Source: Octopus vulgaris (taxonomy: Eukaryota). Taken from it: a stretch of DNA of 64,000 nt. Made by a program: the position numbers and the translations under genes. The notes beneath the pieces are model-generated. The model saw only the letters and a program-made list of their open reading frames with translations, was not told where the DNA came from and ran no database searches. The stretch is from positions 28,148,001 through 28,212,000 of the forward strand of contig OX597830.1 in NCBI GenBank assembly GCA_951406725.2, read 5' to 3'. Below are positions 3,109 to 42,748 of this stretch, piece by piece (position 1 is the stretch's first letter; every line of letters begins with the position of its first letter).

Positions 3109-3987
3109 GGCATATCAACCAAATACAGTGAAGCAGGAAAAGTAGTAAAATGTGACAAATAATGCAGACTTGGTGGAGTTAACACCGAGGATATCAACCG
3201 CATCATAAGCAGTTCTCCGAAAATGTCATCACCGTATTATCTACCGATGAGATGATATTATATTTAGGACACCGCATAACGTGATACGTTGAAATGATAA
3301 AACCGAAGATAAAGAAATAGGAACCTGTAGTATGGTGGAAGCCAATTTATCCAAAAAAAGATAAGTGGTGGAATGTCTCAGTGAAAACCTCAATAAAATG
3401 TAAACACAATAGACCTGATATAATGATTTGGGACAGGGAAGAAAAGCTGTGTACAGTTGTGGAGCTCAACTGCCCAGCAGATGTTTGCATAAAGCTGAGA
3501 AACAGTGAAAAGGATTATACCTATGCTGAACTATTGAGAAATCTGCAGTTACTCTATCCAGATTACAAGTTCAGGTTTATACCTGTAATTATTGGGTTGT
3601 GGGTATATGTAGCACGCTGTCTAAATAACAATCTTGTGAAATTAGACTTCTCAAAACCAGAAAGGAGATGCTGATTCAAAGACTACAGATTCAAGCCATC
3701 ACTGGAACAGTAAAAATCTGTAAAACTTTCCAAATGTTTATCGTCTATGTATATATGAGCATGTCTAGATATGCAAGTATATGCATGAGAAGACATACAT
3801 AAAAACATACAAATCTGCAAGTATGCATGCATACATACATACATACATACATACATACATACATACATACATACATTCAGGCAAAAATACCTGTTGCTGA
3901 TGTTGAAATTCCAATGAAAGAGCCTTGAATTTAGGTTAGAAACCGGATCATTCTCTATGGGCAAGAAATCTTGAAATAAAATAATGA
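3109..3987 (+). mobile_element. 5'-truncated R4/Dong-like non-LTR retrotransposon: decayed CCHC knuckle, restriction-like endonuclease and 3' UTR
   Basis: 3151-3255 translates CDK*CRLGGVNTEDINRIISSSPKMSSPYYLPMR (degenerate CCHC followed by the Y..R motif). ORF 3381-3674 has HNRPDIMIWDREEKLCTVVELNCP...EKDYTYAEL...FIPVIIG, a PD-(D/E)xK RLE. After a frameshift it reads LQIQAITGTVKICKTF. Flanked by (TACA)n. Confidence 0.85.
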
Positions 3988-4039
3988 TATACATACATGC
4001 ATACATAAATACATACATACATAGGGACATGTAAAGAAA

Positions 4040-4161
4040 CAAAAATATCGCGTTGTTAATGTTGAAATTCCATTGAAGGAGCCTTGGATCTAGGTTAGAA
4101 TCAGACTCTCTATTGGCAAGACTCTATTGGCAAGAAATCTTGAAATAAGACTGCAGAATGA
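4040..4161 (+). mobile_element. Second copy of the RLE element 3' terminus
   Basis: Matches 3883-3987 (gttgaaattcca.tgaa.gagccttg.at.taggttagaa...ggcaagaaatcttgaaataa) and ends in acatacatac. Confidence 0.8.
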
Positions 4162-4446
4162 CATACATACATGCATACATAAATATATCGAAGGGACAAG
4201 TCGCGTGATGAATACTATCTCCAACTTTGGAGCCACAACTATCAGCCTTGTTAATCTTCAGTTGAATTAACTGAGGGAGCCTTTTATTCGCGATCGTAGT
4301 CATTTTCGGCTGGACACAACATCAACAACCCAGTCGAGGAACAAAACGAAGATAACAGCTCAAAAGCTGTAGTTATAGAAGAAACCGTAACTGCAAAACT
4401 CATTTCTCTTGGAGTTACGAACTGAATTCTAGATATGTATATACAG

Positions 4447-4555
4447 AAATACCCTGTTGTTGGTGTTGAAATTCTGATGAAAGTATCTTGGATCTAGGTT
4501 AGAAACCGATTCTTTTTCTATTGGCAAGAAATCCTTAAATAAACGGAATAAGGAC
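4447..4555 (+). mobile_element. Third copy of the RLE element 3' terminus
   Basis: Same ~110-bp terminal sequence, more diverged. Confidence 0.75.
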
Positions 4556-4564
4556 AAGCATACA

Positions 4565-4930
4565 GATCAGCTGTCCTGCTCACGTGAGAGAAAGACGATA
4601 ACCATGCACAACTATTTTGGAACAACCAGTTTCTATATCCACATCATAAAATCGCTATTTATGCCAAAATAATTAGTGCAATTGGCTTTGTGAGTAAATG
4701 CGTTATGCCAATGTTGATATACTAAGGTTTTCAGAAAATGAAATCAATCAAGTACCTCGCACATTAAAAATACAATCTGTAAGTGGAACAGCCAAAATAT
4801 GCAAGAATTTTATCAATTTTAAAACGTGGCACCATCTTTGTTATCCACATTTCAACGATGGAGTTTTGTATTTATATTAGAAACCATTTCCTTCTTCAGA
4901 GGAAAAATTCAAATAATAAAACAGAAGAGA
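4565..4930 (+). mobile_element. Older, divergent RLE retrotransposon C-terminal fragment
   Basis: ORF 4698-4880 (DILRFSENEINQVPRTLKIQSVSGTAKICKNF) aligns by eye with KLDFSKPERR..RLQIQAITGTVKICKTF of the 3109 element. Confidence 0.65.
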
Positions 4931-39226: not shown

Positions 39227-39284
39227 TTATCTATCTATCTATCTATCTATCTATCTATCTATCTATCTATCTATCTATCTATCT

Positions 39285-40237
39285 ACTGCTGTCACGTGTG
39301 GGACGTGTCGGTTTATTAGCTGAGTCTATCGTCAATATTGTCACGCCTCCTTCCTTCAAACGGGAAGGAAGAGCTATTTTCATCATCCTTGTGGCTATGG
39401 CGAAAGAATGTATCTGGTGGACGCATCTGAAAGGATTGGAGACAAACACATTCCTCTCTAGTCAATCTCTCATCAACTTCTTCAAGTACCACTTGAAAAG
39501 GAAAGTGAGAGTAGAGAGGCAAGTTTTGTCTAGCGAATGTTTTAAAAAAAGATGGGTGAATGTAGCAAGGATGGCACGTATGAACGACGAAGCCACCTTG
39601 AGCATAATCCTATGAACCCAGAAATTGAAAACAGAGGGTTACCCACTTGCAAACAAATGTGGTAACATATAACAATATTGACCAAGGTTACCGTGGTCTT
39701 TTTCGTAGGCTTTTCTTCCCACGGATAAACCTTACTTGCTTTCCCCTTTACACCATATATCATAACACTGTGATACACGATCCCTATTGATCGTTCTTTT
39801 TTTCCTCTTCCCCTTTTTTTCCTCTTTTTTCTTCTTTTTTCATTTCTCTTTTCTCTTGTTCCTTTTCCTTTTCTTTTTTTCTTTTTATTCTTTTTATTTT
39901 TTTATTTTATTATTTTTTTTTGTTCTTTTTTTCCCTTTTACGATCCCTCTGGATCGAAAACCTACGCCACCCCTTTTTTTCCTCTTTTTTCTTCTTTTTT
40001 CATTTCTCTTTTCTTTTGTTCCTTTTCCTTTTCTTTTTTTTCTTTTTATTCTTTTTATTTTTTATTTTATTTATTTATTTTTTTGTTCTTTTCTTCCCTT
40101 TTACGATCCCTCTGGATCGAAAACCTACGCCACCCCTTTTTTTCTTTTGTTTTTTGTTTTTTTCATCCCCCAAAAGACAAGCTCTACCTTGTAACTTGTC
40201 CCATCTGTATGCAGCCCTGTGTGGCCAATAAAGAAAC
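39285..40237 (+). mobile_element. Tx1-like copy E with internal 3' UTR duplication
   Basis: Near-identical to C and D; the ttttacgatccctctggatcgaaaacctacgccacccc unit occurs twice. Flanked by (TATC)n. Confidence 0.9.
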
Positions 40238-40789
40238 TTATCTATCTATCTATCTATCAATCTATCTATCTATCTATTTATCTATTTATCTAGGAAATTA
40301 GTATTATACCTATAGAGATGTGTTTGATTCGTAGCTTACACTGGTCATCTCTGAGTAAATGCTGAATAACCAATCGGATAAAAATGATAAAGCGAACGTT
40401 TGCTCTGGTTTATCATACAGTATGTGTAATACTTGCGACTGTGTTCTAAAGTATCTCGTCTATGAGTGGCGTGTGGTGGGCCCCCTAAGACAGACACACA
40501 CATGCAGTCGCTCTCAGCCCACCCATACCACACATACATGCACCACATACACTTAAGCATGCACATGCACATGTACACACTTACGCAGATACCGATGCAC
40601 AAGCACGTACACACACACACACACACACACACATATATATATATATATATATATATATATATATATATTTAGATAGATACACATCAGGCAGAGAGACAGA
40701 CAAACAGGTAGAGAGTTAGATATATATATATATATATATATATATATATATATATATATATATATATATATAGATAGATTGATAGATAT

Positions 40790-41505
40790 GTTTCTTTATT
40801 GGCCACACAGGGCTGGAACACAGATGGGTAGGACAAAATACAAAGTAGAGCTTTTCTTTTGGGGGAAAAGGAGAGAAGAAACAAGAAAAAAATGTGGGTC
40901 GAATTGCGATCAAAAGGGATCATGAGAAAAGAAAACGAAAAGGGTTGGGCTGATCAATAGGGATCGTGTATCACAGAAATGTCAATGTAAAAAGGGAAAA
41001 CAGATTAGGTTTATCCGTAGAAAAAAAAAGCTTACGGAAAAGACCACGGGGACCTTGGACAATAGTGTCATGCAAAAAAAAAACAAAAAAACAAGTGACT
41101 CTCTTTTTTCCCTTCTCTTTGTTTTGGTTCATAGGATTATGCTCAAGGTGGCTTCGTGAATCACTCGTGCCATCCTTGCTACATTCACCCATCTTTTTTT
41201 TAAACAGTCACTAAATAAAACTTCCCTCTCTACTCTCACCTTCCTCCTCGAGTGATGCTTGAAGAAGTTGATGAGAGATAGACCAGAGAGGAAAGAGTTT
41301 GTCTCTAGACCTTTCAGACGCGTCCACCATACACATTATTTTGCCATAACCACAAGTACGATGAAAATGGCTCTTCCTTCTAGTTTCAAGGAAGGAGTCA
41401 CAACAATATTCACGATAGACACGCGAGTGCAGTCGTTCGATATAGGACCACAGGTCGGAATTGGTTGGACACTGTATGAGTGTGTGCGGGAGGGTTTCTA
41501 CGCTA
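40790..41505 (-). mobile_element. Tx1-like copy F (older, inverted)
   Basis: Reverse-complement homology (ETLPHTLIQCPTNSDLWSYIE); its 3' end abuts gatagata, which is (TATC) on its own strand. Confidence 0.85.
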
Positions 41506-42542
41506 CACAGAGAGATGTATATGTATATATACTGTATATACCTGCTTTCGTATATGCATGCATACGTACAAATATACGGGCATGTACGCATACACTTGCA
41601 TAGATGCACACATATGTAATACGATTTCCCCTTGGCCTGATAATACTTCTAATCAGTTGTTTGAACTCAATGTATTTTTGCTTTAAAGTAAGGCATCATA
41701 TCAATACCGAACATTGTATCAATTAATGAACGACAGAATAATATGGGTTACGTCATTAATTTTTTAGTTGTCTCTTTTTTAAGAAACATTGTGTTCAGAG
41801 GTGAGTGGTTGTGAAACATCATATAGCTTCCTCGTTGATATTAAATTGAGTGTATTTTCAAATGAACAGTCTTTATGTAACAGAAACAATCTTCTGCTAA
41901 TGAAAGTGTTTACGTAATGCCTGTTCTTTTGTCCTACACTGACACAACCAGACATGAACACATATCTCTGTAAGCGCACGCGTGTGTGTGTGTGCTTAAT
42001 TATTTATATGTTTGTGTAAAACATTTTCTATATTTATGTTTACAACAATTTAAAAGCGGTGTTGCGTTTATGCTGTGTTCAATTATATCCTGCAAATTTG
42101 TGGTTCCGACGATGGAAATCGATAAAAAAAAAATGTACCACACCGAAATAGGTAATGGTGGTTGAAATTAATGTCTGAAACACTGTAATGTGCTGGTCTG
42201 GCATGGTTGTTGCTGAATGAATGAAGCCAGTATGAGAATAAATGAATAAAAAGGTAGAGAAACAAGTAACAGTGCATAATACAGTACAGAAAACTGTAAG
42301 AGAGGAAATAAATGAAAGCGTACAGAAAGGAGTAACTAAATGAATGAAAAACTGAGTACAAATGACTTCAAAGGAAAACCGTATAATTATGTATATCTAT
42401 CTATCTATCTATCTATCTATCTATCTATCTATCTATCTATCTATCTATCTATCTAGCTAGCTATATATATATATATATATATATATATATATATATATAT
42501 ATATATATATATATACATATATATATATATGTATATATATAA

Positions 42543-42748
42543 AGTTAATCCAAACAAGAAAGCACAAAAAAACACAACAACGCGAGGATGTGGAACAAAT
42601 ATAGTATTATTGGATGCTCAGGAAAGAAGGAAAGAAGGGGGGTTTAACGTTTCGAGCGGAGCTCTTCGTCGGAAACATAGGAGAAGGAAATATCCAGTGA
42701 AGGGAAAATAGAGGAAAAAAATCGCCAACGGTACACACACGGTCACAT
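42543..42748 (-). mobile_element. Neptune-like PLE 3' terminus (subfamily 2)
   Basis: Matches 35867-36069; (TA)n at the 3' end. Confidence 0.85.
42642..42676 (-). ncRNA. Minimal hammerhead motif (U4C variant)
   Basis: GTTT-CCGACGA-A-GAGC(TCC)GCTC-GAAA-CG-TT-AAAC; stems I and II are perfect. Confidence 0.7.

Follow-up and report, generated by a model that had tools for sequence, protein, structure and literature searches.

Lineage-specific microsatellite flanks of three retroelement lineages in a 64-kb window of the Octopus vulgaris genome

In a stretch of 64,000 nucleotides of the Octopus vulgaris genome (assembly GCA_951406725.2, contig OX597830.1, positions 28,148,001 to 28,212,000 of the forward strand; hereafter the window, numbered from its first letter), three retroelement lineages are associated with differing microsatellites: a Tx1-like long interspersed nuclear element (LINE) with TATC, a LINE carrying a restriction-like endonuclease (RLE) with CATA, and Neptune-like Penelope-like elements (PLEs) with TA. 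We consider it likely that these associations reflect independent, lineage-specific preferences for an insertion target, probably helped by element RNA that ends in a short repeat-like tail. The link is strongly supported at the 3' end of the Tx1-like LINE and moderately supported for the RLE LINE, where the support comes from an intact relative of different source (L001), and for the PLEs, where the bias is already in print. The pattern is genuine, yet thinner than was first claimed in an initial annotation of the window.

Six 3' ends of the Tx1-like LINE are present, five on the forward strand (36516-36578, 36860-36924, 38392-38456, 39167-39224, and 40171-40235) and one on the reverse strand (40861-40792). 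As stated in the initial annotation, every one of them (6/6, from two independent loci) is followed by TATC/CTAC, here found on the sense strand in almost identical phase and in runs of 7-58 nt with one mismatch allowed. Copies A to E (36458-40238) form one head-to-tail array within a tract spanning 36372 to 40292, and counting the six ends as six independent events was rejected since five lie within this array. On its left the array opens with a (TATC)n tract (36372-36457, forward strand), presumably the host target, which has no element 3' end before it and therefore favours the repeat being a target over its being a tail. There follow, all on the forward strand, copies A (36458-36582) and B (36759-36929), both reduced to the end of the 3' untranslated region (UTR) and the latter leading into a 400-nt CTAC/TATC tract (36931-37337); copy C (37341-38460), a 5'-truncated C-terminus of open reading frame (ORF) 2 with the zf-RVT region and the 3' UTR, joined at its 5' end directly to TATC; copy D (38467-39227), which joins the short TATC tail of C at an internal TATC-like site and is followed by (TATC)14; and copy E (39286-40238), which has a 163-bp internal UTR duplication and is followed by (TATC)13. 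The duplication in copy E is a tandem one in T-rich UTR at 39810-40166. Copy F (40788-41504, reverse strand) stands alone and is older, with about 14% divergence in the ORF and with TATC and then TA at its 3' end.

TATC/CTAC was also found on the 5' flank of four of the six Tx1-like copies, all four inside the one array, in which the 5' side of copy D abuts the two-unit tail of copy C. The members A to E have five different 5' truncation points. The ORF distances among C, D, and E are equal (9, 8, and 10 differences of 305), while in the UTR D and E differ at 1 of 189 positions and C is unlike both (38-39 of about 190; 39/188 between C and D). This structure fits serial insertion into one microsatellite.

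The 3' association extends to the genome scale. Comparison of the stretch 37330-38500 with the contigs of run X1 (organism A, 40.6 million contig records) and run X3 (organism B, 35.8 million) gave 45,853 and 32,593 matching contigs, respectively, indicating that the Tx1-like family is very abundant in both organisms, although the summed contig depth of this comparison does not equal copy number. Past the 3' end (38467) a (TATC)n consensus was formed by at least 128 contigs in X1 (agreement 0.72) and by 92 contigs in X3 (agreement 0.68). At 37341, 58 (X1) and 52 (X3) contigs run on into non-repeat element sequence, and the TATC before copy C is thus flank and not element. Of the 12.9 million reads in each of two raw-read runs that carry the species label of X1, only 2 (X21) and 12 (X22) matched, and these runs were set aside.

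The Tx1-like frame had named matches in Octopus bimaculoides and in Argonauta hians, the latter at 59% over 96% of the query, in keeping with an octopod host. Copy C matched zf-RVT (E 2.5e-8), and a relative (P0003, 65% identical) matched L1 ORF2p better than R2 in PDB (E 3e-50 vs 4e-24). From the zf-RVT and PDB matches, the family is predicted to encode an L1-group reverse transcriptase (RT) with a C-terminal zinc knuckle. A domain scan of P0003 and a second relative (P0005) returned RT and zf-RVT only, and the window, in which all six copies are 5'-truncated, holds no apurinic endonuclease domain, so that such an enzyme is presumed from the clade alone. No relatives with flanks were found when metagenome, viral, and prokaryote collections were searched with the Tx1-like alignment.

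For the RLE LINE, tblastn located coding pieces at 3163-3739, 4588-4826, and 43705-43418, and counting UTR copies there are five 3' ends. The best-preserved ends had been described as stopping in (TACA)n; a CATA end was borne out for two of the five (3987 and 4161), and a second RLE family had been overlooked. The copy at 3109-3987 (forward strand) is 5'-truncated, with a frameshifted CCHC/RLE region and a 3' UTR with an internal CATA run, and is flanked by CATA on both sides. That internal run (3826-3876) was considered as the 3' terminus and rejected, as a conserved UTR block comes after it. Two more 3' UTR copies lie within 4024-4545 (forward strand), of which 4024-4161 ends in CATA and 4444-4545 does not. 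The second family is represented by copy a (4575-4929, forward strand), with no CATA on either flank, and copy b (43311-43705, reverse strand), with a CATA-like 5' flank and at most a decayed run at the 3' end. Altogether CATA is found at the 5' flank of three of the five copies.

A metagenome scan for RLE relatives, in which 2 of 106 candidate stretches were confirmed, provided the two loci L001 and L002. L001 (1-4125) is an intact full-length element with one frame of 1179 codons containing RVT_1, and is bordered on each side by about 100-110 nt of CATA in the same strand orientation, also at its full-length 5' end. By tblastn (E 1e-32), the window RLE piece matches the C-terminal part of L001, with 44% identity over 94 aa. 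L002 is 30% identical to L001 over 955 aa and ends in a TAA-type repeat as reported for Dong. The N-termini of L001 and L002, where R4/Dong elements have a Myb/SANT-like domain and lack zinc fingers, gave no Pfam match, and no zinc finger was seen in them by eye. Another relative (P0053) matched only R2 proteins in PDB. Judged from these sequences, the RLE element appears to have a single ORF with an RT followed by a C-terminal CCHC motif and a restriction-like endonuclease. In a tree of 36 rows, 32 of them protein matches picked by score and length and none a named Dong, R4, or Rex6 row, the window RLEs and L001 fall within a 12-row clade (95/89) that excludes L002, which sits on a long branch.

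Seven PLE ends of two subfamilies are present in the window. The six that had been placed in (TA)n do exist, and a seventh (43784-43844, forward strand) had been overlooked; long TA, in runs of at least 14 nt, follows five of the seven, whereas the end at 26444 has only 3-4 TA units and the one at 43844 has a decayed TA-like flank. Coding sequence is carried by the piece at 21529-23150 alone (reverse strand), which comprises a decayed RT thumb, a zinc-finger linker, a GIY-YIG region, and the pseudo-long terminal repeat (pseudo-LTR), and whose 3' end lies in a TA run together with a miniature inverted-repeat transposable element (MITE). The others on the reverse strand are pseudo-LTRs or pieces thereof, of subfamily a at 11179-11299, 35867-36075, and 42542-42748, and of subfamily b at 14457-14657 and 26444-26633. 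Those at 11179-11299, 14457-14657, and 35867-36075 have TA on both sides, making three of seven pieces with a 5' TA flank, and the one at 42542-42748 has 3' TA and abuts a short interspersed element (SINE) on its other side.

The window PLE frame had no Pfam match, but it is 39-40% identical to two relatives (P0009 and P0010) that match RT and, below the curated cut-off, GIY-YIG. A zinc-finger linker CX4CxxC (CX2-5CxxC class) occurs in P0009-P0011, and the window copy keeps two of its three cysteines. The window PLE is therefore predicted to have had a C-terminal GIY-YIG after a PLE RT and a zinc-finger linker. This linker is also found in Nematis, to which the element might belong instead. 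Related loci were obtained from three prokaryote-labelled assemblies (eight loci, L003-L010; L008 was excluded because its match is confined to the upstream part), while a search in viral contigs found no PLE relatives with flanks. The eight loci are animal-type PLEs, and their presence in contigs of prokaryote genome bins is probably due to host contamination. A pseudo-LTR motif resembling a hammerhead core, with a 4-bp stem, is common to five of the window ends and, where examined, to L003-L010; two window ends gave no hammerhead match in Rfam, and the folding energy was not unusual. Two other places in the window recall PLEs. At 15276-15444, inverted arms of 68 nt (93% alike) with no microsatellite resemble a tail-to-tail PLE pseudo-LTR of another lineage, and at 58468-58729 a YVDD-bearing RT fragment (RVT_1 E 0.003), probably of another PLE, is followed by (TA)n.

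Other repeats in the window served as controls. A MITE with terminal inverted repeats (21139-21510) has (TA)n on both sides, a SINE-like repeat (32806-33040, forward strand) has TA on both sides, and a Tc1 transposon (49932-51604, reverse strand) has TA-rich flanks on both sides, whereas most other SINE-like copies, with boundaries drawn by eye, have no microsatellite flank. The Tc1 transposon has terminal inverted repeats of about 240 bp that are 90% alike and an open stretch of 299 codons. Hence the notion that (TA)n is private to PLEs was rejected, and the claim that the microsatellite landscape is divided into separate targets finds no support, since TA is also used by the MITE, Tc1, and SINE and a single TA run (21511-21528) holds one MITE end and one PLE end. 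The background per strand position is 6.0% for TA, 1.5% for CATA, 1.2% for TATC/CTAC, and 15.3% for any microsatellite. With motifs picked after inspection of the data, the chance probability counted per locus is 1.5e-4 for Tx1 (2/2), 1.4e-5 for PLE (at least 5/7), and 0.03 for RLE (at least 1/2), and given landing in some microsatellite it becomes 0.006, 0.088, and 0.18, respectively, so that only the Tx1 association survives this conditioning.

The preference we propose could operate as follows. The endonuclease would nick one strand of the repeat, as the sense-strand polarity for TATC and CATA suggests, and a repeat-like RNA tail would pair with the nicked repeat and prime reverse transcription. 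The repeat left beside old copies might then be a fresh site for new copies, giving rise to head-to-tail arrays. The nicking, pairing, and priming steps correspond to target-primed reverse transcription. As the tail would pair with the nicked target repeat, reading the repeats as tails and reading them as targets are not mutually exclusive. The flank patterns, the strand polarity, the array structure, and the two-sided CATA of L001 were read directly from the sequences. Target-primed reverse transcription is discussed in PMC6007223.

Several observations weigh against a lineage-specific target preference. The Tx1-like ends of the window amount to two loci, the array and the solo copy F, and the latter has no 5' TATC; copies D and E could be a local duplication, given their near-identical UTRs; and among the loose ends listed the genome-scale evidence concerns the 3' side, where an agreement of 0.68-0.72 leaves room for other flanks. 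The RLE ends likewise come from only two independent loci, and three of the five are not in CATA, namely 4545, 4929, which enters a repeat of the opposite-strand TG/TATG type, and 43311. In addition, the ends 3987 and 4161 have an identical 23-nt, twice-interrupted tail on bodies that are just 78% alike, suggesting an element-borne origin of the first units. L001 is known from one assembled contig, and its direct grouping with the window RLEs is weak (83/42). The PLE enrichment loses significance when landing in any microsatellite is the condition, and none of the seven Neptune-like relatives examined runs into TA. Finally, the targeting evidence consists of occupied sites, with no empty allele among them.

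Much of this would be expected if the repeats were element-encoded 3' tails that later expanded, with little choice of target, the array having arisen by template jumping or local duplication and its 5' repeats being the tail of a neighbour. The interrupted RLE tail, the bare 5' side of copy F, the likeness of the D and E UTRs, and the one-sided contig evidence all point that way, as do the CATA run inside the RLE UTR and an octopus RTE element whose 3' UTR consists for the most part of a microsatellite (PMC9115989). However, the leftmost TATC tract of the array has no element end before it, the array copies differ in their 5' ends and in UTR type, CATA stands at the full-length 5' end of L001, and three PLE pieces have TA on both sides, and we therefore regard tails with little target choice as an unlikely account. 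Near-random insertion, with retention in repeat-rich neutral DNA and chance producing the association, would accord with the masking of about 25% of the window as simple repeat and with the non-significant conditional probabilities for PLE and RLE. It is very improbable in view of the SINE controls and the CATA on both flanks of L001, and the motif- and strand-specific (TATC)n consensus found genome-wide largely refutes it for the Tx1-like family.

A true partitioning of niches, in which competition or selection within the octopus genome drove the lineages apart onto repeats that do not overlap, would explain the lack of crossover that was noted from the outset and is upheld here, with none of 18 ends lying in the motif of another lineage, and also the use of CATA by the RLE LINE, rather than the TAA of most Dong elements, despite 12 perfect TAA-type arrays in the window. 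In contrast, TA is shared with the MITE, Tc1, and SINE, and differing targets are to be expected of three unrelated nucleases even where there is no competition. Perfect arrays of at least 16 nt are so numerous (70 TA, 17 TATC, and 14 CATA in 64 kb) that a shortage of targets is implausible. Since L001 comes from a different source, CATA use need not have arisen by sorting inside octopus and may predate the host. We consider such partitioning distinctly improbable, and since it presupposes competition or exclusion, of which there is no sign here, its evolution by competition is unsupported. Most likely, the target preferences are separate traits of the lineages and not an evolved division of targets.

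Compared with known systems, the Tx1-like family resembles the Tx1 families Kibi on (TC)n, Koshi on (TTC)n, and those of crocodilians on (TTCC)n/(TTTC)n (PMC4494074) in being an L1-group LINE tied to a microsatellite that is pyrimidine-rich on the sense strand, but differs from them in its TATC/CTAC motif and octopod host, and its place in the Tx1 clade is putative. For R4/Dong LINEs, (TAA)n is the reported target in most insects, molluscs, and cnidarians (PMC7998251), and L001 is like them in its single ORF with RT and C-terminal restriction-like endonuclease and in its microsatellite flanks. Instead of the (TAA)n or ribosomal DNA target that marks R4/Dong, (CATA)n is found in both the window RLE and L001, whereas the more distant L002 keeps the TAA type; as Dong has been reported on (TAA)n, the use of CATA looks like a shift of target. 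In Octopus vulgaris, Dong-R4 occurs in abundance and has been active recently (PMC13282606, Table 1). PMC13282606 and PMC8967140 describe L1-Tx1, Dong-R4, and Penelope as abundant octopus elements, and the sections of them covered here contain no analysis of targets. The (TA)n bias of Neptune and Naiad PLEs is published (PMC8557442), and the window PLEs share with them the C-terminal GIY-YIG, the zinc-finger linker, pseudo-LTR pieces, and TA flanks; they differ in nothing of substance, although the 39%-identical relatives from other hosts are not in TA. An enzyme-linked 'niche differentiation' among repeats is likewise in print (PMC10871703), for crustacean DNA viruses in which different integration enzymes lead to different repeats, called genomic niches; those systems have recombinases or a DDE enzyme and were studied with long reads, unlike the retroelements here with one window of evidence. 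Repeat targeting has also been discussed as a survival strategy (PMC4640811). Both targeting of microsatellites and the 'niche' idea have thus appeared in print. The literature searched contained no description of TATC as the target of a Tx1-like LINE or of CATA as that of an R4/Dong-like LINE, although Repbase or Dfam entries or the supplements of PMC8557442 and PMC4494074 may record such targets.

If confirmed, TATC and CATA would be added to the targets of sequence-specific LINEs, and the heavy microsatellite load of octopus would be tied to active retroelements. Since the general idea of microsatellite targeting is already established, the gain is incremental. L001 and L002, as a CATA/TAA pair, are a natural comparison for target change in the RLE protein, which bears on LINE-based insertion tools. 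One may speculate further, though we would not expect all of it to hold, that octopod genomes contain an L1/Tx1 family of thousands of copies specific for TATC and an R4-like lineage whose specificity shifted from TAA to CATA, that each has its target repeat in its RNA tail and so inserts into, duplicates, and reseeds microsatellites of its own, and that the two jointly shape much of the octopus tetranucleotide repeat load, one motif per lineage.

The window holds a few other features. A Rfam scan of the whole window returned mainly microsatellite-driven microRNA noise, and a tRNA-like sequence (6281-6343, Rfam 49 bits) stands right after (TA)n and is followed by a SINE-type end. A SINE-like family (45365-45808, 15769-16208, 26150-26888, 17036-17419, and 33290-33988) has an internal TA/CA/CATA microsatellite, differing in length among copies, between its two halves. 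Near-perfect inverted arms of 23 nt enclose a (TA)n run at 24590-24677, and a tandem repeat of about 102 nt is present in nearly three copies at 63713-63986.

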